Below, piece by piece: positions 5,509-39,204 of a stretch of 64,000 bases of DNA. The notes under the pieces were generated by a model. It ran no database searches. It was not told where the DNA came from and saw only the letters and a list, made by a program, of their open reading frames with translations. Position 1 is the stretch's first letter; each line of letters begins with the position of its first letter. The position numbers were made by a program, and so were the translations under genes. This stretch comes from a virus: IMG/VR virus record IMGVR_UViG_3300027969_000050, positions 76,267 to 140,266 of that record. One strand, written 5' to 3'.

Positions 5509-6969
5509 TCACAAACCGCTTTCTTTCCAGTCGAACACGCCTGACGTTCTTCCCAAAGCCAAATTGAGAAGTTTGTCTCGTTCGTTGATCGAAGGATCGC
5601 CAATCACCTGACCCATAAGGCTCTCAAGAATTTGTCCGATCTCTGGGCCTCGAGGAACGCCAGCCTCAATTAAATCTTGGCCGTTGATTGCCAACTGAGA
5701 AAGATCAGTCGGCTGCTGCTGCTGGCGCACTTGATCCACAAGGCCGCGCTGAACCTCGTACTCGTTGTCATCAAACGCATCTTGCCCTTCGCCCTTCGCC
5801 GCTTGATCAGCCCAGCGCAGGTTCAGCAGATCATCTGCGTGCGGCTCGACCCGATTTAAAAATTTTCTTGCGCCCTTCTCCGAGTCAAACGGGGCAAACA
5901 TATGGTGCTTTACGAGGTCCGAAACCCGATCAGTCCTGTCCTTCGGGTACCTCAAACGGGTCATTGCGTCCCTAGTCATTTCCTCACCGACGAGTTCGTG
6001 TTGCTGACCTATTGTGCTTCCGTCAGGCAGGCGCTTCTGGTAGTAATGGTTTGTTCCTCGCTCTGGATTCACCCAAGCGGATGCGGGCTTGCCAATATCG
6101 TGGAGCAAACCGGCCAAACGGGCATCTGGGTCATCAGTTTTCTGACTGATTCGGTCAAGCACGTCAAGCATATGCTCGCCAAGTTCTAAAGCGTGGTGCG
6201 GATTGTTCTGGTCGTAGCCGAACGTTGCATCGACCTCAGGCAAAATATATTTAAGTACGCCGCTGTCGTGGGCCAAACGGATGGCGCCGACTGGGTCGTC
6301 CGAAGAAAAAATTTTATCCAGCTCTGCTTGCACTCTTTCGGCTGGGAGATGTTGGAGGCTTGCTGCCGCCTCAGCCATTTGGGCAATCGTTCCCTCGTCA
6401 GGGTGAAGGCCATGCCGACCCTTAGCCACAAGCGCCCTAGCAACCCTGAGCGGATCCTCGCTTAGCGACTGGTCGTGGATTGTTCTTAGTCGCCCACCTG
6501 CGATGTCCTCAGCGCCATTGTGCGGATCAATAAGTTCGCCCGTTCCTAGATTGACGGCCATCGCATTCGCTGTGAAGTCACGCCTCAAAAGATCTTCTTC
6601 AGGCGAAAGGGTGTGGTCGGCATCAACAGAAAAATCCGTGTGCTTGTCGCCAGTTGACTGTTCGTGGCGAGGCAGCGCGATCTCGACCTCCTCACCGCCC
6701 TGCTTGTAACGAAAGACGCCAAAATCTTTTCCTGTGTAATCAATGTCTCCACCCAGTGGAGCTAAAACCGAATCAATATTTTCTTTTGGAATACCAGAGA
6801 CCATGAGGTCAATGTCCTTCGGGGTCTTGCCCATGATCGTGTCCCGGACCGCGCCTCCAACTGCGTAAACCTGCCCACCAGCAGCCATAAGCGCTTCAAC
6901 AACGGGCTGAATAACAGGATTGCTTGCGACAATTTGCCTTACCGACTGTCCCACATTGTCCTCAGCGGC
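5509..6969 (-). other. cca: CCA-adding enzyme/HD domain of the giant ORF
   Basis: All class II nucleotidyltransferase signature motifs present; flexible loop (PRHEQSTGDKHTDF) retained; LAINGQDL...GPEIG tail. Confidence 0.88.
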
Positions 6970-9900
6970 TCCGAAGTGAAACTCGTCTCCGCCCTGACCT
7001 CGCGCCCTTCCACGGAGGCCTCCGCCCGGTTGTAGGTCCGGCTGACCCAAGGCGCGATTGATCATTTCCACCTGATCGGGGGTTGGGTTTCCATAAAAAC
7101 TGATCTTCTGATCCTCTCTTGGCGGACCCGAGGCGTGACTATTCGGGGGCCAAGTTACTCGACCACTGAGAAAGGTTCCTTCCTGAAGGGCTTTCATCCA
7201 GAAAGTGATTGCGCTGGCGCCATCCCCATTCAAAAATTTATTTCTGAATTCGGAATCCTGCGAGAGCATCTCGTAGTGATAGCCACCGGGCGGTCCAAAA
7301 TAAACGGCGTTGTCCTCCGGGAGATAGAACCAAGGGGCGTCTAGTTCAGGACTCTTGTGAACTTCGTTGGGCTGGAACTTGATGTAAACGACTTTTGGAG
7401 GATTCAGTTCGTCAAATGCCCCGAAACGAAAATCTTCTTCTTGCTCATCCAGAACCTCATCCGCAGGAAAAATATTTCTTAGGGCGTCGTTGACTCCCGG
7501 AGCCGGTTCCGTCAGACCTTGATTGTCGGAGTTTGGAAACGAATCTTCCCAACTAAAATTACCTGAATTTTGCCAATACTCGCCTCTGCAAGGATCGCCC
7601 GCCGCAATCAAATTTTCTCCAACGTTCTCAGAGAGTCCCATAGGACGACCCACCCTTGGAATATCAAACTCGTTTATAAGGTCCTCGTGATACTGACCGC
7701 GAAGGCCAACGTAAAGCGCATTGGCGGAAGGCCAATAGATAAACGGAATTCGGTTTTCGTGGTAGTCCATTCCTTTCCTATTGTGTTCTTCATTCTGAGA
7801 TATGAAAACCGTGACGCCTTGCCTAGTTCTATAGGTGCCAGCGGCTCCGAAACGGAAGCCCTCATCTTCTTGAGCCGGATCAGAAAAAATATTTATTAGC
7901 GCGTCGTTGAGTCCTGCTTCTGGTTCGGTGCCTTCATCGTTGAACCACTGAAGGGAGTCGTAGCTTGGTGGAATAAAACTTCCGTCACCCGGAACGCGGC
8001 GCCAATACTCGCCGTGTGTGTCAGGCCCAAAACCGCCGCGTAAATCGAAATCGGCTTCCGTCCAAGCCCCCCGAATGTCGAATTCTTCTACAAGGTCGTC
8101 GTGATACTGGCCAAAGACGCCAACATAGAGCGCGTTATTGACAGGGCAATAAATAAATGGCGCCCTGTCCTTGTTGAAAACCCTATGTTCATCTGGATCT
8201 TGTGATATCAAAACATCGGTGCCAAACTCAGTGGCCGCCCCGAAATGAAAGTCTTCAGGGCTTTCGCTTTGCCTCAAATCATCTAGATCAGCAAGCGGAT
8301 AGTCGGGCAAACCAAGCGCTTCGCAGATGGCTGGAGCCAATGCCGCCGCCTCTGGGTTATTGGGATCAACAAAGTCGGGCATCAGGCGGTCAAACCTCGT
8401 CCAAAAAGAAAATCTTGGCGCGTCCTCGAGTCCGGCCTCCCTAAGAGCTTTTTCAATGATCACATGATGGATGTCGGGAACCGAGCCAATCCAAATTTGT
8501 CCCTGCTCAGGCAAAACAATTAGGGAGTAGCCTCCAAGCTCATCTCCTTCCCTAGGAATAATTATTCCTTTGTTCGCACGGCCCGTGCCGACAACTCGAC
8601 CATCATCATCAAGCCAAACGGGAGTTAATTCTGTCGAGGATCCAAAGTGGAATTCTGAGGCTCCTCCGCCAACAAGGCCATTCAAAGCAGTAATCATTTC
8701 CGCTTGGACGCTTTCGGGGACTCGGCTGCCATAAAACACCAAGTCATTTGGCGGCGAGAACCTTCCAAAGAAATCATAAGACCCGTACTGATTGACGACG
8801 CCTCTAGGAAGCTTATTTGTCATTTCGTTATGAAAGCCGTCTTCCCTTCCAATAGCAATGCTCCATCCATCGTGCCGCGTCGCGTCAGGGTTCATCTCGA
8901 GATAGCGCCGTTCTTCTTCGGCTGGGACGCCGAACCGCTCTTCGATGTTTATGTCTAGGGTTCCTTCGTCCCAAGCAACAACAGGGTAAAGCTTGTCCAT
9001 ACCTGCACTCGGATAAGGGGTACTCTCCAAATATTCTCCGTGGCTTGGATAATCGGGATCCGCCTTGGCGCCCCTGAGGTCAAGCAGCTCGACATGGCTT
9101 AAGATGGCTCGAGATTTTTTCTTTGCGCCCTCATCATCTCCTTGGCCTTCTTCGCTAAGATTTTTTAATTCTGAGATGTCGGTTGGCTCTTCAGGAATGA
9201 TCATTGGTCCGCCCATTGATTTGGGGCAAGGACCGGGCTTGTGATTGAAGCCGCATTCCTCACAGGCACCAAATTTTAAATCCTCTTCGTCAAGCTCAAC
9301 ACGCACTTGTTCGCTCTTACGACGGAACTTATCAAGCACCTTTTGGATGCGCGAAGTTGACTTTTTTCCTCCAGAGAGAAAATCGGAGTTCCGGATACCA
9401 CTTTCATTTTCATTTTCGAACGAATTCACCCAGTTTCTAAGGATATTTGCGAAGATCGGGGCGTCAAGTTCATCATCTTTGGCAAATGCGTTTGCCTGAC
9501 TATCGGCAGGTTGGGCAGGTTGCGTATCAGAGAAGGAAAAGTCAGGATCCCCAAGGAAATGATCAACAATTCCCTCGCCTCCTTGCGGATCAAACGCCTC
9601 CCAGCCTGTTCCAAAGGGCTTGTTGTCTGCTCCGAACTTAAAATCTTCTTGCTCCCACTGCTGGCTAATGTCAAGATTGTCGATAAAGGCCTTGATATTA
9701 GAGGGGATCGGCTGTTCATCATAAGGCGGGCGCATCCAATCAACCGGACCAAATTGACTTTTCCTTCCTTCCCACGCAGCTCCGTCGATTGCGCCCAAAG
9801 TCAAATGCGAGTCCCAAGTGGTTCCAACTTGAACCGTGTTGCTTTTTGGCCAATAAATAATCGGACAGTCGCCTCGAGGATCGGGCGCACCGCCGCCGGT

Positions 9901-11982
9901 TGATTCAAAGACGACCTTTGGCTCCTCTGAAGCGCCAAATTTAAAATCTTTGGGCGTTCCAAAGAACTCATCAAGCTTTGCTTCGCAAGCAGCCTTCTCT
10001 GATTCGGATAAATTTTCCAGACCAGACCCCCACAGTTCGCCATCGTATCGGCACTGAGCAACAAAAGTAAGATCTTTGTTTACATCCACCGCTCTGTTAG
10101 GAATGTCTGAGTGGTAGGCCCCTTCAGCTCCGATATACATATTGATTAGGCTTGCTGGCGCCCATTCGGAACTTTGGTCCAACAAGGCATAAATATAAAC
10201 TGGGTGGGACACGCCACCACCCTCATCATCATGTTCAGATCCGTAGTCGGATTCCTTGATTAGATCGATGACATTGATCTCTGGTTGCTCTGCCGCTCCA
10301 AACTTAAACCCGGGAGTGGTACCCAAAAATTCATCCAGACTATTTTGAATGTCTTCACGAAGCATGGGATCACCATCAGCAATAAAATCGCGTCCATGAG
10401 GATAACGCAGAAGAGGCAAAGTTGAGATATCCACCCCATCAATCTCTGCTCGTTTTGCGACCTCACGGAATTTCGGATCCCCCATAATTTCTTCGTGATA
10501 GCCATTTGGCCTACCGACGAAAACTTCGTATTTTATATCGCCCTCCCAAGGATGTCCTACCGGAACAATTATTATTGGCCAATCGGTTCCACCGGTATCG
10601 ATTCTTTCGTTGTGGTCTCCGTGAAGGTCACGGACTCCAGTCAGGTCAACCACCTCAACAAAATTAGGAAGCGAGCCGCCTTCGTCTTCTAAGACCGAAC
10701 CGAACTTAAACCCGGGATCCGTACCCAAAAACTCGTCCAGATCCTTTTGGATGTTTTCCGGGACGTATTGGCGTCCAGACGGGTAGCGACTGTAGCCGAC
10801 CTCTTCGTACCACTTCCGTGAAAAGACATCAGAACCGGACATGCGTTTTTCGAACTCGGGATCCTCTTCTATTTCAGTATGGAAGCCGTTTTCTCTGCCA
10901 ACAAAGACGGTCCAGCGATTTCCTACTGGAACAATAATTATTGGCCAGTCAAAGGATCTAGGTTGCTTGCTTGGTTCGTCCCCGACTTCAGAAATAAAAG
11001 CGTCGTGGCCACCGAAGCGATCATCCATTTCGGTTAGGTCGATGATCTCGACATCCTCATTAGAACCGAATTTAAAATCGTCTTGAACTCCGAGGGCCGA
11101 CTTTACCGCTGAATCAAATTCGACTGTCCATCCATCGGGGTACCCCCGGCCAGCGGAGCCATACTCATGCTCGCTGCCCAAAAGCATCCACTGGGTAATT
11201 GCATCGTTTACACGAAATAAAGCAACTTGATCACCGTAAAAACGATCAACATACCTTGCTCCTCCGGGAGAGGCGATGCCACGCGCAGTAAGTACCGTCA
11301 TCACATCTTCATGGAAATCATCATAACTTCCAATAAAAGCCCTTGTCTCCGTCGGGCCTAAGATTGCTATTCCGGGTCGATCTCCGGTTCCATGCGAACC
11401 GTTAAGATTTGCGTCGTTGGCGTCTGAGGTATCAAGGATTTCTACTGAGACTGGGACGGTCTCGATCTGTGAGCGCAACCTGCCATCAGAACCAAATTTA
11501 AAATCTTCTTGTGCGGGACCCATTACTGGCGCCACTCGCTGTAATTCTGACTTGACTGCTGATTCAAATTCGGGAGGTGGACGTGGAATTTCCACAGTGT
11601 CCGTCCAATCACTGGAATTGTTCCCGTACCAATCCTCAATAGTTCCATCAGGATAAACCCGGAAACAAACAACCGGGCCAAGATCGGAAGAGAAAGCGCG
11701 AAAGTCTCCCGGCTGTTGGGTCAGAATTCCCTGAGCTTCCAATATGGCAATTAAGTCATAATGAAATGCTTGATATTCGCCAATGAAAACCTTTATCTCC
11801 GTCGGGGCAAAGATCGCTACTCCGGGGCGGTCTCCGGTGTCGTGCGTTTGCCACGAGTCATAATGCCTTGACTCTGAGGTGTCGAGAACCTCAACTGAAA
11901 TTGGAAGCGAGTAATTCAGAACCCGCGTCACACCGTCAATGTTGGTCCAGCCGTCATTGTCAAATTCGGTTAGGTCGTCCAC
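5509..11982 (-). CDS. Giant repeat-array polyprotein-like protein with C-terminal class II tRNA nucleotidyltransferase (CCA-adding enzyme) and HD domain
   Basis: 12 units ending in [FL][KRH]FG[AS]; C-terminal ~486 aa carry VGGAVRD, DID, EDLLRRDFT.NA, EDPLR and HD motifs (HH..EH, LLHDIGKP, QHELVG, HHM). Confidence 0.9.
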   Translation of the reverse strand: MDDLTEFDNDGWTNIDGVTRVLNYSLPISVEVLDTSESRHYDSWQTHDTGDRPGVAIFAPTEIKVFIGEYQAFHYDLIAILEAQGILTQQPGDFRAFSSDLGPVVCFRVYPDGTIEDWYGNNSSDWTDTVEIPRPPPEFESAVKSELQRVAPVMGPAQEDFKFGSDGRLRSQIETVPVSVEILDTSDANDANLNGSHGTGDRPGIAILGPTETRAFIGSYDDFHEDVMTVLTARGIASPGGARYVDRFYGDQVALFRVNDAITQWMLLGSEHEYGSAGRGYPDGWTVEFDSAVKSALGVQDDFKFGSNEDVEIIDLTEMDDRFGGHDAFISEVGDEPSKQPRSFDWPIIIVPVGNRWTVFVGRENGFHTEIEEDPEFEKRMSGSDVFSRKWYEEVGYSRYPSGRQYVPENIQKDLDEFLGTDPGFKFGSVLEDEGGSLPNFVEVVDLTGVRDLHGDHNERIDTGGTDWPIIIVPVGHPWEGDIKYEVFVGRPNGYHEEIMGDPKFREVAKRAEIDGVDISTLPLLRYPHGRDFIADGDPMLREDIQNSLDEFLGTTPGFKFGAAEQPEINVIDLIKESDYGSEHDDEGGGVSHPVYIYALLDQSSEWAPASLINMYIGAEGAYHSDIPNRAVDVNKDLTFVAQCRYDGELWGSGLENLSESEKAACEAKLDEFFGTPKDFKFGASEEPKVVFESTGGGAPDPRGDCPIIYWPKSNTVQVGTTWDSHLTLGAIDGAAWEGRKSQFGPVDWMRPPYDEQPIPSNIKAFIDNLDISQQWEQEDFKFGADNKPFGTGWEAFDPQGGEGIVDHFLGDPDFSFSDTQPAQPADSQANAFAKDDELDAPIFANILRNWVNSFENENESGIRNSDFLSGGKKSTSRIQKVLDKFRRKSEQVRVELDEEDLKFGACEECGFNHKPGPCPKSMGGPMIIPEEPTDISELKNLSEEGQGDDEGAKKKSRAILSHVELLDLRGAKADPDYPSHGEYLESTPYPSAGMDKLYPVVAWDEGTLDINIEERFGVPAEEERRYLEMNPDATRHDGWSIAIGREDGFHNEMTNKLPRGVVNQYGSYDFFGRFSPPNDLVFYGSRVPESVQAEMITALNGLVGGGASEFHFGSSTELTPVWLDDDGRVVGTGRANKGIIIPREGDELGGYSLIVLPEQGQIWIGSVPDIHHVIIEKALREAGLEDAPRFSFWTRFDRLMPDFVDPNNPEAAALAPAICEALGLPDYPLADLDDLRQSESPEDFHFGAATEFGTDVLISQDPDEHRVFNKDRAPFIYCPVNNALYVGVFGQYHDDLVEEFDIRGAWTEADFDLRGGFGPDTHGEYWRRVPGDGSFIPPSYDSLQWFNDEGTEPEAGLNDALINIFSDPAQEDEGFRFGAAGTYRTRQGVTVFISQNEEHNRKGMDYHENRIPFIYWPSANALYVGLRGQYHEDLINEFDIPRVGRPMGLSENVGENLIAAGDPCRGEYWQNSGNFSWEDSFPNSDNQGLTEPAPGVNDALRNIFPADEVLDEQEEDFRFGAFDELNPPKVVYIKFQPNEVHKSPELDAPWFYLPEDNAVYFGPPGGYHYEMLSQDSEFRNKFLNGDGASAITFWMKALQEGTFLSGRVTWPPNSHASGPPREDQKISFYGNPTPDQVEMINRALGQPDLQPGGGLRGRARGQGGDEFHFGAAEDNVGQSVRQIVASNPVIQPVVEALMAAGGQVYAVGGAVRDTIMGKTPKDIDLMVSGIPKENIDSVLAPLGGDIDYTGKDFGVFRYKQGGEEVEIALPRHEQSTGDKHTDFSVDADHTLSPEEDLLRRDFTANAMAVNLGTGELIDPHNGAEDIAGGRLRTIHDQSLSEDPLRVARALVAKGRHGLHPDEGTIAQMAEAAASLQHLPAERVQAELDKIFSSDDPVGAIRLAHDSGVLKYILPEVDATFGYDQNNPHHALELGEHMLDVLDRISQKTDDPDARLAGLLHDIGKPASAWVNPERGTNHYYQKRLPDGSTIGQQHELVGEEMTRDAMTRLRYPKDRTDRVSDLVKHHMFAPFDSEKGARKFLNRVEPHADDLLNLRWADQAAKGEGQDAFDDNEYEVQRGLVDQVRQQQQPTDLSQLAINGQDLIEAGVPRGPEIGQILESLMGQVIGDPSINERDKLLNLALGRTSGVFDWKESGL
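6970..11982 (-). repeat. Array of 12 protein-level repeat units
   Basis: Delimiter motifs at 11491, 11065, 10699, 10297, 9934, 9631, 9268, 8641, 8239, 7846, 7420, 6970; G-x5-H in 11 units. Confidence 0.85.
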
Positions 11983-12456: not shown

Positions 12457-13908
12457 CTAGCGCGGCCCCATAAACGGATCGCTGATGTCTGGTCTAGGGG
12501 CAAGCTGACTGGACGGCAAAATGCACTCTACGAAGTGAGGCTGAAGCTCGCCTGACTGATGAAGCGGGAAGTGAACAGTCACCCAGTCTAGGGTGGGGTC
12601 GTAAGAAAAAACTTTTCCAACCGAGTTAGGGCCAACCAGAACCATCTCGCCGGTACCGTTCCCCGGCGCCCCACCAACAGCAGCGCCATACTCGCCATTC
12701 CAATTCTGAGCATCTCGTGGCGGAAGGAGCTGAACGACATCCTCCTGATTAAATATTTTTTCTCCCGCCGCAGTCCGAACATGCGTGTAGGTTTTTCCAA
12801 GAACCCTTGACAAGGCACCCGGCATATGAATATTTCGCCCGCCAGTTTGGTCATCGGCCTTGGGTTGAGAGAACGGAAGCTCTAGTTGTTCTCCGGGCTG
12901 TCCGGGCTGATCTGGGATAACGTCAAACTGGTCGCTAGGGTTAGCCATAGGATTAGTGCTTTGTCCCTGACCGCGACTTGGAGACGGCTTGGGAACCTGA
13001 GCAGGCTGGCCCGTAAGCTGCTCTGGAGCGCCATTAGGCTTGCCAGAGGGGGCGGAAGGGGCAGACGGGGCGGAAGGTCCTGCGGGACCCATAGAAGGTC
13101 CAGTGGGCGAGGTAGGAGCCGAGGGGGCGCCCGGAGCAGCGCCACCCGACCCTCCGCCATCGATCTCTTCCTTATCAACGCCCTTCGGAACACCACCGCC
13201 TGTTCCGACCTCATTTGTTGGGCCGCCTCCACCGGGAGCCTGACCGACGCCCTTATCGAACAACTGACCCTGCTGTACAGGCTGGGTTTTCTTCATTCCA
13301 CGAGGCATCTGACCGTGGATATTGGGGTCGTAATCGTCAATTGGCGTAGCCATTGCCTGCCACATAGTTGCGATAACGTGAGAGCAAGAGCGGCCTTCTA
13401 GATACTTCCACTTACGGGTACGTTGAAATGCGTACTGATCCCAAGGACACTCGCAAGTCCACTGAGTAATCGCCATTGAGTTTGGGTCGTCACGACTGAT
13501 CGTACACTCGTACTCGCCGTGATCGCCAGTGACATTTGAGACGACGACATTCCAGCCATTCCGGAGGATCGTCACCTGACCATTATTTTTTAGACGGACG
13601 GCTTTGGCTTTGACGTCATCCCAAGTTGCCGTTCTAGAATTATCGAAAAGGGTGAAATGCGCCCTGCGATAACCAAATGGCTTTAGATCCTCGTAAACGA
13701 TCTGCTCAGCAAGATGGCGATCATCATGGGATCCGCCCTCAGACATAATTACTGCCTGCCCTGCCGGACCTTCCCACCAGCTAACCCTAGTTGAGCCAAG
13801 GGTTTGGAACTTAGGCGGCAGGTCTTTTGGCTGAGAACCTATTGCTAGGCCGACATAATCTTCGAACCAAGTCTTTTCTTCTTGGGCGGTAAGGACGCTC
13901 CAAGACAT
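12457..13908 (-). CDS. SWIM zinc-finger protein with Pro/Gly-rich linker
   Basis: WTCECPW...SCSHV SWIM motif; low-complexity middle; possible SH3-like C-terminus. Confidence 0.75.
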   Translation of the reverse strand: MSWSVLTAQEEKTWFEDYVGLAIGSQPKDLPPKFQTLGSTRVSWWEGPAGQAVIMSEGGSHDDRHLAEQIVYEDLKPFGYRRAHFTLFDNSRTATWDDVKAKAVRLKNNGQVTILRNGWNVVVSNVTGDHGEYECTISRDDPNSMAITQWTCECPWDQYAFQRTRKWKYLEGRSCSHVIATMWQAMATPIDDYDPNIHGQMPRGMKKTQPVQQGQLFDKGVGQAPGGGGPTNEVGTGGGVPKGVDKEEIDGGGSGGAAPGAPSAPTSPTGPSMGPAGPSAPSAPSAPSGKPNGAPEQLTGQPAQVPKPSPSRGQGQSTNPMANPSDQFDVIPDQPGQPGEQLELPFSQPKADDQTGGRNIHMPGALSRVLGKTYTHVRTAAGEKIFNQEDVVQLLPPRDAQNWNGEYGAAVGGAPGNGTGEMVLVGPNSVGKVFSYDPTLDWVTVHFPLHQSGELQPHFVECILPSSQLAPRPDISDPFMGPR

Positions 13909-15467: not shown

Positions 15468-16218
15468 CAGTCTTTACGTCCTTGATTAGCCCTGAATAGT
15501 TGGTCTTGGCGATGTATTCGCCAGTAGACTCGCTGATCTGATCTAGCAGGCCTCGATTGGCCAGCATCTTGTAGACAAGATTGGACGGAGCGAAGTCGCC
15601 CTTGCCTGCTCTCTGGTCAATCCGACGGCGCTTATGGATCTGGTGCCAAAAGGTCTTGGCCTTGTAAGGCTCGTAACGCAGTAGGCGCTCCATTTTGTCA
15701 GCCTGCTCTAGCGCGTAGGTGTAAGCGGAGTTATAAATTACCTCTGGATCCCTAGCCATTTCGCGGTCAGGAGGATTAACCCACTCGTCATTGAGAATCT
15801 CGTAGCCCGAACGCAGCCCCTTCTTATAGAGATCGGTTGGCAAAACGCCCTCTGGCACAATAAATACCTGAAGGGGATGAGTGGTCATCGGAAGAATGCT
15901 TCCGTCCAACTGCTCAACTGCGATGCCAATCATCTCGGCCCTTGACCACTCAGGAAAAATTTCTGAGTTGACGAACAAGGAGATGTCAAAATCGCTGTCT
16001 TCCGAGTACTGGTAGGTCGTGAGGCTGCCAGTGACGTAAAGGCTGCCCCAGTTCTGGACATCGTAGCCATGCTCGTTAAACCTGTCAAAGACAAGCTTCT
16101 CAACCCACGTTTTATGCTCAAATTTCAGCGTTGGCTTGACGGATACCGACCCGTCCCAGACCGTAGGGTCTAGCGTTTCATTGATCGGATCGAGAATATT
16201 AGACTTCTTAGGCTTCAT
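15457..16218 (-). CDS. Pol-beta superfamily nucleotidyltransferase
   Basis: hG-S-x9-SDxD motif: LYVTGSLTTYQYSEDSDFDISL. Confidence 0.8.
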   Translation of the reverse strand: MKPKKSNILDPINETLDPTVWDGSVSVKPTLKFEHKTWVEKLVFDRFNEHGYDVQNWGSLYVTGSLTTYQYSEDSDFDISLFVNSEIFPEWSRAEMIGIAVEQLDGSILPMTTHPLQVFIVPEGVLPTDLYKKGLRSGYEILNDEWVNPPDREMARDPEVIYNSAYTYALEQADKMERLLRYEPYKAKTFWHQIHKRRRIDQRAGKGDFAPSNLVYKMLANRGLLDQISESTGEYIAKTNYSGLIKDVKTDAR

Positions 16219-18181
16219 AGCGTCCGTCCCTCAGATCAACGCGATCCTCCACGATCTCCTTGGCGTCCTCGACAATAAAAATTTTAAGCACGGATGACCT
16301 CGAGTCCCTCCTCCAAGTAAAAGCCCCTTGATCAAGGCCAATCAGGTTTAGCTCACCGAGTCCCTCGAGCGTCCGGCGGACTAATTTTTTATTTTTTGAG
16401 ACAACCTTGAACATGTCTGGAGTTGGAACTTCTCCTTGCTTTGCCACCTTGAGGGCGTTGCCAACAGCAAAAACCTCGCATCCAGCGGTCAATAAGGCCG
16501 AAGTTACGGCCTCTACGTCAGAATTGCTCAAAGACCCAATGAAAACAAGGCTGCCTGTGTTTGCAAGCTTCGTCGTTCCGCCATTAATATTTTGCAGCTC
16601 CACTGAGTTGACCTTCAGCTCAGGATGCTGGTAATACCAGAGGCGAATCAGGTGACGCACTGTGTAGGGGATCGTCGTCGTAGATTTAATTAGGAGCTTT
16701 TTAGAGTCGTAAACGCCTTGAACCGTGTTCTCATAGCCAGAATCTACCGAGAGATCAGCAACCTGCATGCCCGGATCCCCAACAACAATCGAGTCATCCT
16801 CAACGTCGTAAATAAAAGGAATGGGCAGGGCGACTGGGTCTACCGCCGACATAAAAGTGATTTCGCCCACTCCTTGAGGCTGTCTCGGGGTGAAATGCGG
16901 ATTAAAAGTAGCGTCTGGATCAGTGTTAGGGAAGTGATCGTTCATGACTAGCGTGTCGGATTCGGCCTCGCGGTGCTTAATGAACTCGTGCCACGATGGA
17001 AGGAGCTGCTCGCATTCAGGACATTGATAGAGGCCATTAATTCTTTTTGGGTCCGAAAGTCCAATGGACCCATTTTGCTGTCCGGCGATTGCGCTTTCCT
17101 CTGCTGCGGTGTCGTTGAAGAACTGGCCGTCATCATTGGCCGGATTTGGGTTTGAAAAGTTGTGTTCTTCCAAATCCTCGATGCGCTTTACAACGTTGTC
17201 ATTGCCAGCCAGAACAAACTTCAAATTGTTGTCATCGGCGTATTCGTTCAGTGCGGACAGAAGCTTAACCCCAAAAATTTTATTTGGGAGCTGGATGTCA
17301 TCTCCTTCAACCTTGAGAGTCCCAACCGTCATTTGCCCCGAAAGACGGGTCGCAATCTTGGACCAGTCCTGCTTATGCGAGATTAGGCACTCGTCTCCTT
17401 GCTGAACAAAATAAAGATAAGAAGTCTTTGAGGCCACTTCATGGCCCTCCATGTTGGAAAGGCCGCTCCAAGAAAGACCAACGGAGTTGCAGTACTGCTT
17501 CAGGACATCCGAGAGCGCATTGAGGCCAATATTTGTTTCGACCTCCCATGATGCATTGTCATCCGGGTCAATTTTTAGCGTCCCAACTGCAATTGGCCCC
17601 GAAGTTTCGGGGTTTACTAGGCTTTCGAGCGGTTTGTCATCGACGATGAGCTGCCCATCCGCATAAGAAAAATTTAATTTCTTCGGTTCACGCATGTCGT
17701 GGTCCATGTACGACCGATCAATGTGATCTCGATTGTCCTGAGCCTGAGGTTCCTCAGCAGGAAGGGCGTCACCGGCATAATCCATTGAGACGCGAGCAAA
17801 GTGATTGAGGTTCTTGAAAATATTTTCTGCTCGATCAGCGAAACGCTCACTCCTCTCGGTGGCCTTTGGACGAACAACATCTAGTCCTCGGTAAAGGGGG
17901 TGCGACATGGACTTGTAGATGATGTACTTGTACCGGTCGCAGGTCAGGTCAATTACATATTTTTTGTCGGACGAGACCCAGACGTAGTGGCCATTGTCCT
18001 CGCCAATAAAGCCGCCAAGACGGCGCGTAAGCCAGAATGAGGTGACGTAGCACTGGCCTTTAGAGGCGTCCTGATCTCCACTGAACTCGGGGTGGCGGGT
18101 GTCGTCGTTCCACGCTTTTTCTGCGGCAGACTTAAGGGCGTGTAACTCGCCCTGAGAAATTGACTTAGGATCGAAGGTCAA
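16208..18181 (-). CDS. Multidomain protein: papain/transglutaminase-like (YunG-like) domain, zinc finger, repeat unit, degenerate CCA-enzyme head
   Basis: GQCYV...GHYVW...IDLT; YQCPEC...FIKH; PIPFIY...VVGDPG; ALLTAGCEVFAVGNALK. Start set at the TTG overlapping the upstream stop, after GGAGA. Confidence 0.75.
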   Translation of the reverse strand: MTFDPKSISQGELHALKSAAEKAWNDDTRHPEFSGDQDASKGQCYVTSFWLTRRLGGFIGEDNGHYVWVSSDKKYVIDLTCDRYKYIIYKSMSHPLYRGLDVVRPKATERSERFADRAENIFKNLNHFARVSMDYAGDALPAEEPQAQDNRDHIDRSYMDHDMREPKKLNFSYADGQLIVDDKPLESLVNPETSGPIAVGTLKIDPDDNASWEVETNIGLNALSDVLKQYCNSVGLSWSGLSNMEGHEVASKTSYLYFVQQGDECLISHKQDWSKIATRLSGQMTVGTLKVEGDDIQLPNKIFGVKLLSALNEYADDNNLKFVLAGNDNVVKRIEDLEEHNFSNPNPANDDGQFFNDTAAEESAIAGQQNGSIGLSDPKRINGLYQCPECEQLLPSWHEFIKHREAESDTLVMNDHFPNTDPDATFNPHFTPRQPQGVGEITFMSAVDPVALPIPFIYDVEDDSIVVGDPGMQVADLSVDSGYENTVQGVYDSKKLLIKSTTTIPYTVRHLIRLWYYQHPELKVNSVELQNINGGTTKLANTGSLVFIGSLSNSDVEAVTSALLTAGCEVFAVGNALKVAKQGEVPTPDMFKVVSKNKKLVRRTLEGLGELNLIGLDQGAFTWRRDSRSSVLKIFIVEDAKEIVEDRVDLRDGRYEA

Positions 18182-22410: not shown

Positions 22411-23614
22411 ACCTTTGGCCTCTCCAATAGAGTTTGTTGTCAACGAATGTGGCTAGGTCGATGCTGAACGTGCCATCTTCAAAAACGTTGGCCGTGGCGA
22501 ATCCTTGCTGCCAATCTGCGTTCACGGCGTAACCTAGACCGCCCTCAATCTGACACATGCAGCCTGTCTCAACCGCAGTCAGAGTGGTGGGCTTACCATT
22601 AATATCATAATTTGTTTTGTGGACACGACTTTGCCTATGCGTGTGTCCCACGACAATCGAATACCCAAGGTGATCCAGAGTCGCCAAAGCCGACGCTCCA
22701 GAGCCTTTTCGGGCAATCCAACCATGTCGGGCAGCCAAGTGTTCAGAGACGTTGATCTGAGCGTGCTTGTAGGACCCGTGAGGCTCTACATAATCAATTC
22801 CAAGCTCATCTAGCCTTAAGAGATAATCTACGCTGAAAATCGATTTATTGTCGTCTGCGCGAGTCAGGTTATATAGATCAGGAACGCGATCAATAATGCT
22901 TCGACGCAGCCGCTCATCGTGATTGCCAGAAAGCTTAGTCCAATGCGTCTTTTCTGACGACTGAACATAGTCCCTTAGCAAGCCATAAGCCGAGTCAATG
23001 CATTCTTGCGTGGTAGCAGCCCAGTCAGGTTCCGCTGGATGGCGGGACACGTTTGGAAGGTCCATTGTGTCTCCAATGAGAATTCCCTCTTCCGGCTTTT
23101 CCTCAGCTAAGAAAGAACAGAATGCATTGTGAAGGTCCTTGTCGTGGAAAGGAGCCTGAGGGTCTCCAACAAACACAACAAGCTTTCCGTTCTTATTGCT
23201 TTTTTGTGTCTTGGGCCTCTTGTAGTCGCCATCGATACGAGCGGGTGAGATGCTCGGGGCTTTGCGGTTAAAGGTTGCCCTTAGCTGACGGTTCTCACCA
23301 TTTTCTCCCCACTCATTGACACGAAGGTTTGTGACCTCCCAATCCTCAGGGTCAAGATTACGATCCTCTAAAAGACCCTCAAGGTCTCCAAGATCATAGT
23401 CGGCAATTTCCATGACCTGTTCATTGGTGTCAATGACGATCTTGTTTGAGTTCCAGCGCTTTAGCGCTCGACGGATTGAATGGCGCGATGTATCCAAGCC
23501 CTTCTTACCAAGCTTGTCAGCAATTTCAGTATGGGTTAGACCTTCTGAGTCCCATGCTTCAATTGTTTCGCGGTGTTTGTCTAGTTCGGAATAGTGAGAT
23601 TTATTCATCATCAA
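22403..23614 (-). CDS. Calcineurin-like metallophosphoesterase with N-terminal HTH
   Basis: GDPQ.P.HD, GDTMD, GNHD, RHG, GHTH. Confidence 0.85.
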   Translation of the reverse strand: MMMNKSHYSELDKHRETIEAWDSEGLTHTEIADKLGKKGLDTSRHSIRRALKRWNSNKIVIDTNEQVMEIADYDLGDLEGLLEDRNLDPEDWEVTNLRVNEWGENGENRQLRATFNRKAPSISPARIDGDYKRPKTQKSNKNGKLVVFVGDPQAPFHDKDLHNAFCSFLAEEKPEEGILIGDTMDLPNVSRHPAEPDWAATTQECIDSAYGLLRDYVQSSEKTHWTKLSGNHDERLRRSIIDRVPDLYNLTRADDNKSIFSVDYLLRLDELGIDYVEPHGSYKHAQINVSEHLAARHGWIARKGSGASALATLDHLGYSIVVGHTHRQSRVHKTNYDINGKPTTLTAVETGCMCQIEGGLGYAVNADWQQGFATANVFEDGTFSIDLATFVDNKLYWRGQRYE

Positions 23615-25835
23615 TCAGGGTATATTTCTTAGCTTTCTTAGCTCTAGGTAATTTCTCAACAGTATCTTTGTCTCTTTTTTCTACTTCTCGGACAGTATGA
23701 GGTGTTTCCTCTTCGCTGTCAACTGTATCTTTATTATCTTTGCTTGATTGCTTTTCTCCTGATTGATTTTTTGACATAGACGGCATGCCCGGACGACGTT
23801 CAAACGAAGCTGGAGGGGCCTGACCGTTTCCTACGCCACCGGGCATTCCTCCCGGTCCCGGAGCAATAGCTGGTGGGCCTCCACCGGGTACGCCTCCGCC
23901 AATTCCATTTGGTCCCATGCCACCCGGCTCCTGCGGCATGACCATTTTCTCGCCAGCATTTCCTCCACCGGGACCTCCGGGAGGGCCACCGCCTCCGGGA
24001 GGAGGGCCACCGGGAGGACCACCGGCAGGGCCGCCGGGAGGACCACCGGGAGGAGGGCCACCGGGCAACATACTTCCCTGCGGGCCAAGCTCCTTGTCCA
24101 GAACCGTTTCGACTTCTGCCTTGAGGTCTGGCGGAATAGGAAGGTTGGCTGCGTGAAGCGCTTTGTAAGTCTTCATCTTTGCGTCCTGCTGCGCGATAGT
24201 CTTCTGGACAAGCTCGTCGTTGTATTCGCCAAGCATGTCGTCGAACTGGAAGTGAACGCCAAACATGAGCTTCTCGTCTGGTACCGGAACGCCCATTGCG
24301 CGTAGCGTCTGCAAGAACTGACGCTCAGTGGCCTCATCACGAAGGTCAAGGGTTCGGAATTGAAGGTCAGGAATAAGAAGCTTGTGCTTCTCTACGATGC
24401 GCTTGGTGCCGTCCTCGTCATACTCGACAACCTCTTCCATGATTGGCACGCGGGTAGATCCACGCTTTTCATAGTCATAGTGTCCCTGAGCCTCTGCGAC
24501 AACGGCAGCGCGATCTTTGTAATGCTTAATCAGATAGCCTTGATAGGTGCGGAGGATCTGGTTAAGGAACTCTGCTTGGAGAGCGGAAGAGGCATACGGC
24601 GTAGCAGAAGAGCCAGCCGAGAGAAGGCTTGGGTTGACGCCAAAGATCTGCATGATGCGGCGCTCGATGCGGTCAAAGTCGTCTCCGAGGCGAGGCATCT
24701 GCTCACGACCAAAGACGCTCTCAACCTCGATACCGAAGTGGTGAACAAGAAGGCGGAAGTCCGAAGAAAGAGCCATGTCCATGTCGTCACGGAAAACTTC
24801 AAGCTCGTCTGGGCTAGGAATCCAAGGACCCTGACCGTCCTGAAGGTCCATAATTCCAAGCTTTGCAAGGATAAGCGGCGAGTAGAGGCGCTCAGCAATT
24901 GCGTCCTGAGATGCCAATAATTTTTCTTCGTGAATTAGGGTCCTGAGTCCCCGGAGAAGAATTGGCGTTCCATGATCGTCCCAGTTAGTCGTCTTATTGG
25001 CGACTTGCTTCAGCAGAACGTTGGAAATCGGGATGTGATCGCCCTTACGAAGGTAAGGAATTAATTCCGGGAAGTTCATTTCAAGCTGCTTGTACTCCTT
25101 TGCAGGAGATTTTGTCTGAGCAAGCTTCTTCAGGTACTCGGGCGGAACAATTTTTAGCTGCGTGCTGCCAAGAAGAGGAAAATTCTCAATAACCACGTCT
25201 TCTGGGTTAATTAGTTCCTCGCGCTCCCAAATACCAAGATCCTCATCAAACGAGCCAAGAGGGAAGGCCTCGCCAACAGTCCAGAATTCACGGCCAAGAC
25301 CAACCAAAAACTCTGGGTAGTCGAGCTGGCCGATAAAGAGGTCCTCGTAAAAATCTTTTAGCTTGGGGTCCTTGCACTCAACGTCCATGCCAACGAGCGG
25401 GAAACGAGTGAAAATGTCAATCAGGATTGGTACTAGGTAGTGGGTCGAGTAATAAAGTCGAAGCCACTTGTGAAGCTTATGGCGATGACCCTCGTCGGCC
25501 ATGTTCCAAGGCAGACCAGAAAGATCCCAATATTCAATAGGGTCATAGAAACGAGGAATAGCCGCGAAGGTATCTCCGCCGCCCATGCTGCCCGTCTTGC
25601 GACCGCTAAGACGACGCTGATCGCCCATAGCCCGCATCAGGCGATTGTTTGCCTCGATCTCTGAGGCTTGTTTAGTTGTAGAGCCAAGCATATCTGCATG
25701 GCGAGCGTCCTTAGTCATAGACGCCATCTCTGAATAAGTAGAGGCTTCGAGGCGAGCGCGAGTCGCGTTCTTAGGAACGGCAACTCCAAGTTTCTTTAAA
25801 TGCTGAACCTGCGCATCTAATTTAGAGGTATCCAT
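23601..25835 (-). CDS. Portal protein
   Basis: Portal-like core (LIDIFTRFPL, GEAFP, HGTPILLR, PLILAKLG); near terminase; Pro/Gly-rich C-terminal tail. Confidence 0.75.
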   Translation of the reverse strand: MDTSKLDAQVQHLKKLGVAVPKNATRARLEASTYSEMASMTKDARHADMLGSTTKQASEIEANNRLMRAMGDQRRLSGRKTGSMGGGDTFAAIPRFYDPIEYWDLSGLPWNMADEGHRHKLHKWLRLYYSTHYLVPILIDIFTRFPLVGMDVECKDPKLKDFYEDLFIGQLDYPEFLVGLGREFWTVGEAFPLGSFDEDLGIWEREELINPEDVVIENFPLLGSTQLKIVPPEYLKKLAQTKSPAKEYKQLEMNFPELIPYLRKGDHIPISNVLLKQVANKTTNWDDHGTPILLRGLRTLIHEEKLLASQDAIAERLYSPLILAKLGIMDLQDGQGPWIPSPDELEVFRDDMDMALSSDFRLLVHHFGIEVESVFGREQMPRLGDDFDRIERRIMQIFGVNPSLLSAGSSATPYASSALQAEFLNQILRTYQGYLIKHYKDRAAVVAEAQGHYDYEKRGSTRVPIMEEVVEYDEDGTKRIVEKHKLLIPDLQFRTLDLRDEATERQFLQTLRAMGVPVPDEKLMFGVHFQFDDMLGEYNDELVQKTIAQQDAKMKTYKALHAANLPIPPDLKAEVETVLDKELGPQGSMLPGGPPPGGPPGGPAGGPPGGPPPGGGGPPGGPGGGNAGEKMVMPQEPGGMGPNGIGGGVPGGGPPAIAPGPGGMPGGVGNGQAPPASFERRPGMPSMSKNQSGEKQSSKDNKDTVDSEEETPHTVREVEKRDKDTVEKLPRAKKAKKYTLIDDE

Positions 25836-38182: not shown

Positions 38183-38254
38183 TGGGGGCGGAAGGACTCG
38201 AACCTTCAACCTTCGGCTTAAAAGGCCGCTGCTCTACCATTGAGCTACGCCCCC
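38183..38254 (-). tRNA. tRNA-Lys(UUU), no encoded CCA
   Basis: GGGGGCG acceptor, GCTC/GAGC D-stem, CT-TTT-AA loop, GGTTCGAGTCC T-arm. Confidence 0.95.
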
Positions 38255-38255
38255 C

Positions 38256-38622
38256 TTGGAACCGTGACTGCGACCATCGTCTATTCCGGGCAAGCCCTAG
38301 TGACTGGTCCACATCGACCTATGCGACGAATATCACACTTGGCACTCCCGTCACAGACGGGTTGATCGATGCTTGGCTCCCACAGGACTTACGGCACGGC
38401 CCGCCTTGCGATAACCTTTAATAAGACGGTACAGAACTGCATTCCAACAGTTCCCCGAATGGCCTAAAAGTGTTATCTAACTAGACCTGTTTGCCGGATA
38501 ACCGTCCGGTCGGCTCTATAGACCTGATCTCATGCAGACTCCTTGCTTTGCTGTGAATTGGACTTAACTCTTTACTCGCTAAAGTTACGCGAACAACCCA
38601 TTGACGTAACTTTAACTGCTAG
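38256..38622 (-). ncRNA. Candidate structured non-coding RNA between tRNAs
   Basis: About 365 nt with no sense-strand ORF in the track and at least five hairpins. Confidence 0.45.
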
Positions 38623-39050
38623 TACGGGGAGTGGGACTCGAACCCACACTGAAAGGATTTTAAGTCCTCGTCCTCTGCCAATTGGGATATCCCCGCCTCG
38701 ACTTCTCTGTGGCAATTAGCGCATAGAAGAACACAATTCTCTATTTCTTCCAAACCCTTTTCAAGGGTAAGAAGCGAAATGCCCCTCTTGCTTGTTTTCA
38801 GATCTGGGTTCAAATGATGAAACTCAAGAGCGCCAATATACGAATCATATCCGCACGCAACGCACTTTCCCCCAGCCGACTCAACCAATGCCTTTTTTCT
38901 TTCTCTTGCATAGTCTGAGGTTGTTTTGATATAAGGTTTTTTCTCTTTTCGGTATTTGGCTATCTTTGCTGCGTTTCTACATTTAGTAGAACAGAACTTT
39001 CTTTTGGGGCTAATGACTTCGTTTGAGCAATTATGCTTATGGCATGTCAT
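38619..39050 (-). CDS. HNH endonuclease (homing-type)
   Basis: FCSTKC; GGKCVACGY...ALEFHHLNP...CVLLCANCHRE. Confidence 0.85.
   Translation of the reverse strand: MTCHKHNCSNEVISPKRKFCSTKCRNAAKIAKYRKEKKPYIKTTSDYARERKKALVESAGGKCVACGYDSYIGALEFHHLNPDLKTSKRGISLLTLEKGLEEIENCVLLCANCHREVEAGISQLAEDEDLKSFQCGFESHSPY
38623..38696 (-). tRNA. tRNA-Leu(UAA), short variable loop, no encoded CCA
   Basis: GCGGGGA/TCCCCGT acceptor, GAGGA-CT-TAA-AA-TCCTT anticodon arm, GGTTCGAGTCC. Confidence 0.9.
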
Positions 39051-39131: not shown

Positions 39132-39204
39132 CTCCCCGACTAGGACTCGAACCTAGGACCTAACGATTAACAGTCGTTCGCTCTGCCAACTGAGCTATCG
39201 GGGA
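39132..39204 (-). tRNA. tRNA-Asn(GUU), no encoded CCA
   Basis: TCCCCGA/TCGGGGA acceptor, AACGA-CT-GTT-AA-TCGTT anticodon arm, T-arm. Confidence 0.95.

Follow-up and report, generated by a model that had tools for sequence, protein, structure and literature searches.

CCA-adding enzymes are listed among phage RNA-repair functions in a jumbo-phage survey (PMC7824862), and large modular proteins of phages and conjugative elements have been described as polyvalent proteins (Iyer et al. 2017, PMC5512222). Papain-like folds have been classified in a scheme that treats 2HLY/DUF2026, SseI, PMT, protein glutaminases and acetyltransferases within one section (PMC10318531). Here we describe a gene that touches on all of these, found in the final 64 kb (hereafter the window, 64,000 nucleotides) of a 140-kb tailed-phage genome, IMG/VR record IMGVR_UViG_3300027969_000050. 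It encodes a 657-residue protein and is termed the sister gene with respect to a giant open reading frame (ORF) downstream on the same strand, which ends in an intact CCA-adding enzyme for transfer RNA (tRNA). Our preferred reading, to which we give a probability of about 0.75, is that the sister gene is an enzyme-dead descendant of a larger fusion protein, with an N-terminal thiol domain acting in trans and a tail kept as a folded pseudoenzyme.

Features of the sister gene are given below; residue numbers (aa, amino acids) follow the 667-aa frame P0001, which is the called 657-aa protein (P0003) plus 10.

16208..18181, minus strand: sister gene, 657 aa; TTG start at 18181, stop at 16208-16210, translation checked
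17792..18172, minus strand: YunG-type domain, aa 14-140 (Pfam YunG; papain/transglutaminase-like core)
18050-18052, minus strand: codon of C54 (in GQC), verified
17987-17989, minus strand: codon of H75 (in GHYVW), verified
17948-17950, minus strand: codon of D88 (in IDLT), verified
17207..17689, minus strand: two tandem small alpha/beta domains, aa 175-335 (from model secondary structure)
16952..17044, minus strand: C2H2-type zinc-finger-like motif, aa 390-420 (C397, C400, H413)
16562..16843, minus strand: His-less module copy, aa 457-550, starting PFIYD and ending TKLA (from profile homology)
16211..16561, minus strand: truncated class-II nucleotidyltransferase head, aa 551-667, 117 aa (from sequence and fold)

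The translation check confirmed all coordinates and sequence strings of a preliminary description of this DNA. From the N-terminus, the order is YunG-type domain, two alpha/beta repeats, zinc finger, PFIYD module and dead-head tail. An AlphaFold model of the protein has a mean predicted local distance difference test (pLDDT) score of 81.7; a Foldseek search with the whole model yielded nothing beyond weak gelsolin-like rows and CCA heads at E > 0.1, and informative fold matches needed single-domain searches. Neither PHROGs nor NCBIfam contained a match to the protein.

The nucleotidyltransferase-like tail

The preliminary description took the C-terminus for a catalytically dead copy of the CCA-enzyme head found in the giant ORF (P0002), a proposal now strongly supported by sequence matches, fold and missing motifs alike. 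By BLASTP, aa 551-635 align with aa 1676-1761 of P0002 at 30% identity (E 2e-6), and a hidden Markov model (HMM) built from eight orthologous tails matches 111 genuine heads, E lying between 5e-22 and 8e-14 for the best 40. The model of the tail (aa 549-667), with blocks at pLDDT 86-97, aligns in VIA-align with class-II heads at Z 9.2-11.6 and a root-mean-square deviation (rmsd) of 2.1-3.1 Å over 102-113 residues; the individual matches are 3aql (Z 11.6, rmsd 2.1, 108 aa), 1miv (11.1), 1ou5 (10.4) and others at 9.6 and 9.2. Significant similarity to the nucleotidyltransferase head is thus found by both HMM and structure alignment.

The catalytic signature is lost from this fold. In the sister-gene tail GG has become GN and RD has become KV, the two aspartates of DxD are replaced by Pro and Met, and a 28-aa deletion removes the RRD motif (motif B), with the protein stopping after one more strand, about 10 residues beyond the deletion. 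The neck, body, tail and HD domains are absent, a Pfam scan giving no PF12627, PF13735 or HD match. When the eight orthologous tails were aligned with eight genuine heads, GGxVRD was lost in all eight tails and both DxD aspartates in all but P0007, which keeps DLD; the 28-residue gap and a V-D-L-x-x-G-R end motif are common to all eight. Judging from these motifs, the sister protein is incapable of CCA addition or nucleotidyl transfer.

Selection on the tail was gauged by the ratio of nonsynonymous to synonymous substitution rates (dN/dS), estimated for each domain by the Nei–Gojobori method (NG86) with saturated dS values left out.

Window versus L009: YunG domain 0.07, PFIYD module 0.00, tail 0.44
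Window versus L008: YunG domain saturated, PFIYD module 0.09, tail 0.26
L008 versus L003: YunG domain 0.06, PFIYD module saturated, tail 0.32

The middle region (aa 131-449 of the 657-aa protein) has a dN/dS of 0.08 between the window and L009, and the tail is changing more rapidly than the other parts (0.26-0.44 versus 0-0.13). Its reading frame, near-constant length and end motif are nevertheless kept in eight orthologs down to 53% overall identity. By these estimates constraint on the tail is relaxed and non-neutral, and a retained structural or docking role therefore fits better than a pure relic. Of the earlier suggestion that the dead head is a decoy, adaptor or relic, the dead head itself stands, whereas "relic" alone is too weak a term for a segment of the same length in eight orthologs with dN/dS below 1.

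Fusion relatives, module chains and the intact enzyme

A word-index search retrieved 38 homologs, some 30 of which are proteins of ~1100 aa with all four CCA Pfam domains, together with seven close relatives of ~650 aa. The ~1100-aa relatives share the N-terminal 620 residues and then continue into a CCA-adding enzyme; the JGI name for these fusions is "tRNA nucleotidyltransferase (CCA-adding enzyme)". An exhaustive search raised the family to at least 125 cluster representatives (50% identity), every one of them from an uncultured phage and most fused to a complete CCA enzyme. P0001 is collinear with the fusion P0013 over aa 17-636 (35% identity, E 5e-98), its tail falling on the P0013 head domain, and the 1076-aa fusion P0014 occupies the sister gene's syntenic slot in locus L006. 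From slot and collinearity, the sister gene is therefore the positional ortholog of fusion proteins made of a YunG-type domain, a module and a CCA enzyme. The fusions carry an insertion between zinc finger and PFIYD module that is absent here and that in P0044 and P0183 holds a Pfam GNAT domain. Across relatives, GNAT, Fic, 2H-phosphoesterase, ParB, MuF and Arr domains are added, the LigT match being weak.

In a neighbour-joining tree of the shared N-terminal module (N-module; Kimura distance, 62 sequences, 618 columns, midpoint root, no support values), the eight dead-head proteins group together as a single clade, which has a long stem and lies within the CCA-bearing forms; P0058, P0174 and the P0013 group occupy the adjacent branch. 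Because the motif losses, the 28-aa gap and the C-terminus are common to all eight members of this one clade, the dead-head orthologs evidently have a single origin. N-modules without a CCA part occur at several separate places in the tree, and the module can therefore work without the covalent enzyme. A tblastn search of the sister protein against 50,697 deposited phage records gave no match, and the fused relative P0164 matched deposited phages only through its CCA part at ~30% identity, so the family is absent from cultured and deposited phages. A pattern scan of IMG/VR found no relatives.

The connection between the sister gene and the giant ORF runs through the PFIYD module as well as the head.

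5509-11982, minus strand: giant ORF (P0002), 2157 aa, a module chain with a C-terminal CCA enzyme
6967..7416, minus strand: final His-core module of P0002, immediately preceding the CCA enzyme
5512..6966, minus strand: C-terminal CCA-adding enzyme of the giant ORF, intact, with head, RNA-binding, HD and tail domains

Eleven modules of 100-165 aa, each ending in FxFG(A/S), make up the giant chain, and the last of them occupies the same pre-head position as aa 457-550 of the sister gene, with the junction helix before the head shared in the alignment. A His-less copy of the repeat unit had been noted in the sister gene, and the segment concerned (aa 463-484) indeed falls inside the PFIYD domain. 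The PFIYD family profile (119 sequences) matches the 11-module profile in a local hhalign comparison at 86% probability (E 5e-6, 43 columns), and an HMM seeded with the 11 modules reaches, after three iterations over ~210 proteins, the PFIYD domain in nearly every family member, including P0004-P0009 and ~140 relatives, landing at aa ~448-531 of the orthologs. P465, F466, D469, D473 and G478 are invariant in this domain. In the sister gene Val replaces the module's conserved His, which follows a VG..G motif, and the end is TKLA, not FxFG(A/S); other aligned PFIYD modules of the family likewise lack the His.

The PFIYD domain usually stands directly before the CCA head, ~122-127 residues ahead of the head motif in the long members checked, and this usual adjacency offers an origin for the giant-ORF modules. 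Intermediates connect the PFIYD form with the giant-ORF form of the module: P0058 has the PFIYD domain plus about five more module copies, and in P0164, P0165, P0168 and P0172 the enzyme is preceded by a tandem of two or three. P0058, a metagenomic protein of 2163 aa, holds every part of both window genes in one chain: its YunG domain has Ser in place of Cys and is accompanied by PFIYD, about five His-core modules, a LigT-like phosphoesterase match that is weak, and a complete CCA enzyme. FxFG does not stand at the end of any of these modules.

The enzyme that closes the giant ORF lies ~4 kb downstream of the sister gene, behind the 11 PFIYD-related modules of the chain. It matches PF01743, PF12627, PF01966 and PF13735 in Pfam as well as phrog_2244 (E 5e-75), and shares 64% identity with the enzyme portion of the fusion P0014. 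Together with the fusion orthology of the sister gene, this identity supports the shared ancestry previously suggested for the two genes. The closest relatives of the giant-ORF enzyme are also giant module chains: P0161 at 99% identity, P0162 and P0163 at 87%. Their lengths (1982, 1550 and 1618 aa, respectively) compare with 2157 aa in the window, and module counts differ by up to six; since total length varies by as much as 600 aa between chains whose CCA parts are 87-99% identical, gain and loss of modules is rapid. Loci L008 and L009 carry a dead-head ortholog of 659 or 658 aa ~4.8 kb upstream of a giant module chain with CCA enzyme, so the dead-head gene and a downstream giant CCA protein are paired in all three genomes that can be read to the end. 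The same pairing is probable in L003, where the giant ORF reaches the locus end before its C-terminus.

The simplest history would be duplication of a YunG-module-CCA fusion gene, whole or in its 3' half. The downstream copy would have multiplied the PFIYD-like module and retained the enzyme; the upstream copy would have lost the enzyme. In the ancestor of the clade, the CCA part at the sister-gene locus lost motif A as well as 28 residues that include motif B, and came to end after the head. A recent duplication within the lineage, which would place the tail closest to the giant-ORF head, was considered and rejected: that head ranks 16th, at 52 bits versus 71 for P0066, with a tail profile that included the TKLA strand, which the giant ORF lacks.

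Between the YunG-type domain and the PFIYD module lie two further elements. Each middle repeat is modelled as beta-beta-beta-beta-alpha-beta; the two halves match one another weakly (hhalign probability 29%, E 6e-4) and draw weak gelsolin-like Foldseek rows. The idea that these domains are additional copies of the giant-ORF module finds no support, hhalign giving a probability below 1% both versus the giant-ORF repeats and versus the PFIYD domain. In the zinc-finger-like motif, C397, C400 and H413 are invariant across 20 sequences, the family profile matches a designed and a consensus C2H2 finger in the PDB (E 7e-6 and 2e-5), and three family members match Pfam zf-C2H2. Several relatives have a His 4-6 residues past H413, the position expected for the fourth ligand, and P0013 has Cys there. 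This position is Glu in the window gene and its four closest clade members, while P0009 retains His; to judge by this residue, the finger may be weakened in the dead-head clade.

The sister gene sits within a long minus-strand block. Its TTG start codon and the stop codon of the preceding gene share nucleotides in TTGA, GGAG lies ~10 nucleotides (nt) upstream of the TTG, and its 3' end overlaps the next gene by 11 nt; these overlaps with both neighbours place it in an operon. All five orthologs examined, the window gene (TTG at 18179-18181) and those of L003, L005, L008 and L009, begin with TTG, which with the TTGA overlap in the window suggests translational coupling and low independent initiation of the sister gene. 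The conserved gene order is portal (23601-25835 in the window), metallophosphoesterase, deoxynucleoside monophosphate (dNMP) kinase, sister gene and SWIM-like protein. The last of these, encoded at 12457-13908 (minus strand) in the interval from sister gene to giant ORF, is 483 aa long, has a weak SWIM zinc-finger match, matches two PHROGs of unknown function and is syntenic in L003, L004 and L006.

Neighbours of other family members were also recorded. Directly upstream of the CCA-less P0030, L007:9726-10007 encodes a 93-aa protein with an RF-1/peptidyl-tRNA-hydrolase-type domain (PF00472), which hints, at this one locus, at a tRNA or ribosome-rescue context. Beside the fusion P0014, L006:13218-15317 encodes a 699-aa protein with a weak Fic match, and, further along, L006:22000-22947 encodes an ArdC-N and MPTase-PolyVal protein; both are typical polyvalent-protein components.

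The YunG-type domain and the role of the protein

The N-terminus had been read as a papain-like Cys-His-Asp domain, which sequence, conservation, predicted secondary structure and fold matches all bear out. In isolation (aa 11-145) the domain matches Pfam YunG (PF24585) at 27.9 bits (E 2.8e-6; gathering cutoff 27); the full-length protein scores 23.6 bits, below the cutoff, and membership is borderline. Among 46 aligned relatives, 37 match the same family at E <= 0.01, and the nearest ESM Atlas clusters carry Phage_YunG-like (PF24591) and YunG, with scores of 0.94-0.95. The triad is intact in 57 of 62 family members: the first position is Cys in 58 and Ser in 4, the second His in 58, Arg in 3 and Cys in 1, and the third Asp in all 62. 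P0174, P0013 and P0017 lack both Cys and His while retaining Asp, and such joint loss is the pattern expected for a catalytic pair.

In the domain model (pLDDT 91.8; predicted template modelling score 0.86), a helix spanning 44-55 begins at the Cys, a strand at 65-69 begins at the His and a strand at 75-78 ends at the Asp (+10 for P0001 numbering), so that His opens the second strand after the helix and Asp closes the third. A Cys at a helix N-terminus, with His and Asp on successive strands, corresponds to the papain/transglutaminase-like catalytic layout (Pfam clan Peptidase_CA). Searched against 48,161 solved chains with VIA-align, the domain matched DUF2026 best (2hly; Z 6.7, rmsd 3.7, 110 aa), with further matches to SseI (5.1), protein glutaminases (4.3-4.7), LapG (4.7) and arylamine N-acetyltransferases (2.9-4.3), and also to PMT, OspI, transglutaminases and NlpC/P60. 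About 30 of the 50 matches listed belong to the papain-like/transglutaminase-like superfamily, at Z of only 2.8-6.7. Foldseek gave E 0.1 or worse with NlpC/P60 on top, and the single BFVD match, an unnamed 142-aa viral protein (probability 0.97, TM 0.54), is uninformative. Since no other part of the protein is as strongly constrained as the triad and the motifs around it, we infer that this domain is an active thiol enzyme of papain/transglutaminase-like type, whether hydrolase, deamidase or acyl-transferase.

The Cys domain would act in trans and in the same pathway as the CCA enzyme, an inference drawn from the persistent fusion to that enzyme, the autonomy of CCA-less forms, and the RNA-repair and effector domains of relatives. 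The likeliest setting would be a group of polyvalent phage proteins, made early or injected, that take part in the upkeep or protection of tRNA 3' ends. Beside the PFIYD module, the dead head would be kept as a folded structural or docking piece, a pseudoenzyme that is neither catalyst nor pure junk. Three tRNA genes lie in the window.

38183-38254, minus strand: tRNA Lys-UUU, no encoded CCA
38622-38696, minus strand: tRNA Leu-UAA, no encoded CCA
39132-39204, minus strand: tRNA Asn-GUU, no encoded CCA

All three therefore need CCA addition after transcription. A more specific proposal, in which the dead head would dock the Cys enzyme at the tRNA acceptor end or at the giant CCA enzyme, is a long shot. 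There the thiol hydrolase would strip off a blocking group such as an acyl or aminoacyl adduct left by a host defence toxin, ahead of CCA repair; alternatively, the Cys domain would be a dedicated protease for the module joints. If the docking proposal were true, thiol hydrolase and CCA repair would form a two-protein phage system.

Several observations weigh against the preferred reading of an enzyme-dead fusion descendant. The input alignment of the tail model contained genuine heads, on which the model's confidence may lean, so the fold evidence for the tail is not fully independent of the sequence evidence. The tree was rooted at its midpoint and carries no support values. The tail profile does not favour the giant-ORF head over the heads of other fusions, and the enzyme may therefore have been either duplicated or transferred. 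Fold matches of the N-terminal domain are modest (best Z 6.7), and a literature search on YunG-type domains, in which a surname swamps the word "YunG", found no activity, substrate or partner. Finally, the tail is the least conserved domain, with 46% mean pairwise identity versus 55-74% elsewhere, and could possibly be a slowly eroding relic.

Taken to its end, this last point would make the tail functionless and merely not yet eroded, with only the N-terminal 550 residues mattering. Its low identity, the highest dN/dS of the protein (0.26-0.44), the disappearance of every catalytic motif and the several relatives that end cleanly after TKLA with no tail all speak for such a relic. However, eight orthologs, to 53% identity, keep the tail in frame, at near-equal length and with its end motif, having suffered no further deletions; dN/dS is well below 1 in three comparisons, and a compact fold is predicted (pLDDT mostly 86-97). 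We consider a pure relic unlikely.

A non-catalytic YunG-type domain, serving as a binding or scaffold element in which the conserved Cys, His and Asp are structural, would be in keeping with the modest fold matches (Z 3-6.7), with the five of 62 members that miss Cys and/or His, and with the fact that no family member has a demonstrated activity. It is at odds with the placement of the three residues in the catalytic layout of the superfamily, with the joint loss of Cys and His in three members in which Asp stays, and with a YunG-domain dN/dS of 0.07, and appears quite improbable.

The preliminary description saw in the Cys-His-Asp domain a candidate protease or transglutaminase-type cross-linker that processes the giant protein, here at its FxFG(A/S) joints. 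The papain-like fold and conserved triad agree with this, as do the location in the same strand block as the giant ORF, with the pairing kept in L008 and L009, and the peptidase domains of phage polyvalent proteins predicted to release other domains (PMC5512222). TKLA at the end of PFIYD moreover occupies the position that FKFGA has in the giant-ORF modules, and certain standalone relatives stop immediately beyond TKLA. Yet the modelled PFIYD fold closes with TKL as its final strand, and both the TKLA/FKFGA conservation and the protein ends fit a domain boundary; TKLA, occurring in relatives that are not polyproteins, is the structural counterpart of FxFG, which bears on whether FxFG is a cleavage signal at all. 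No FxFG joint occurs in the YunG-CCA fusions checked (those above 1150 aa and any with a motif match), and among the proteins checked FxFG is confined to P0002, P0159 and, once, P0093. P0058, the one relative with about five extra modules in the chain of its YunG domain, has Ser for Cys, and P0174, P0013 and P0017 have lost both Cys and His. This family distribution weighs mildly against polyprotein processing by the Cys domain. With YunG-type domains also occurring as small standalone bacterial and phage proteins, the closest folds being deamidases, acyltransferases and transglutaminase-like enzymes rather than viral processing proteases, and cleavage of the giant protein itself only hypothetical, such processing is very doubtful.

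Comparison with described systems

Measured against class II CCA-adding enzymes and poly(A) polymerases (PF01743; 1miv, 3aql, 1ou5), the sister-gene tail shares the Pol-beta-type head fold, profile homology and the pre-head helix, but has none of GGxVRD, DxD, RRD, neck, body, tail or HD. The uncharacterised YunG-module-CCA fusions of ~1100 aa (P0013, P0014, P0022) have the same domain order and slot and are collinear over aa 17-636; from these the sister gene differs in having no enzyme beyond the dead head and no insertion between finger and PFIYD module. Members of YunG (PF24585) and Phage_YunG-like (PF24591) are mostly standalone proteins of 120-150 aa, whereas here the domain heads a 657-aa multidomain protein and passes the YunG cutoff only when isolated.

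The papain-like cluster of DUF2026 (2HLY), SseI/Tox-PLDMTX, PMT C116, protein glutaminases and arylamine N-acetyltransferases (PMC10318531) shows the same Cys-His-Asp order. Structural matches of the N-terminal domain to this cluster reach only Z 3-6.7, and a profile search found no match at the sequence level. The Cys-to-His spacing is roughly 37-41 residues in LapG, arylamine N-acetyltransferases and SseI, compared with 21 here.

The family ties a YunG-type papain-fold domain to a tRNA CCA-adding or repair enzyme, a first functional clue for YunG-type domains that points them toward tRNA 3' ends or translation. The clade in the window amounts to a natural experiment in which a giant chain received the enzyme, by transfer or duplication, and the copy at the original site turned into a pseudoenzyme still under selection; because the dead-head clade separates the two halves, the N-module can be studied free of CCA activity.

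Term searches within PMC5512222 and PMC7824862 found no YunG-CCA combination, no PFIYD/His-core module and no dead-head derivative. Polyvalent proteins (Iyer et al. 2017, PMC5512222) resemble the sister protein in being large and modular and in uniting several unrelated effector-type domains, with five domain types in one chain here. Polyvalent proteins are products of phages and conjugative elements; packaging of the sister protein in the virion, or its injection, is hypothetical. The gene is thus a pseudoenzyme derivative of a widespread YunG-CCA fusion family, for which we found no description in the literature, and a variant of the polyvalent-protein theme.

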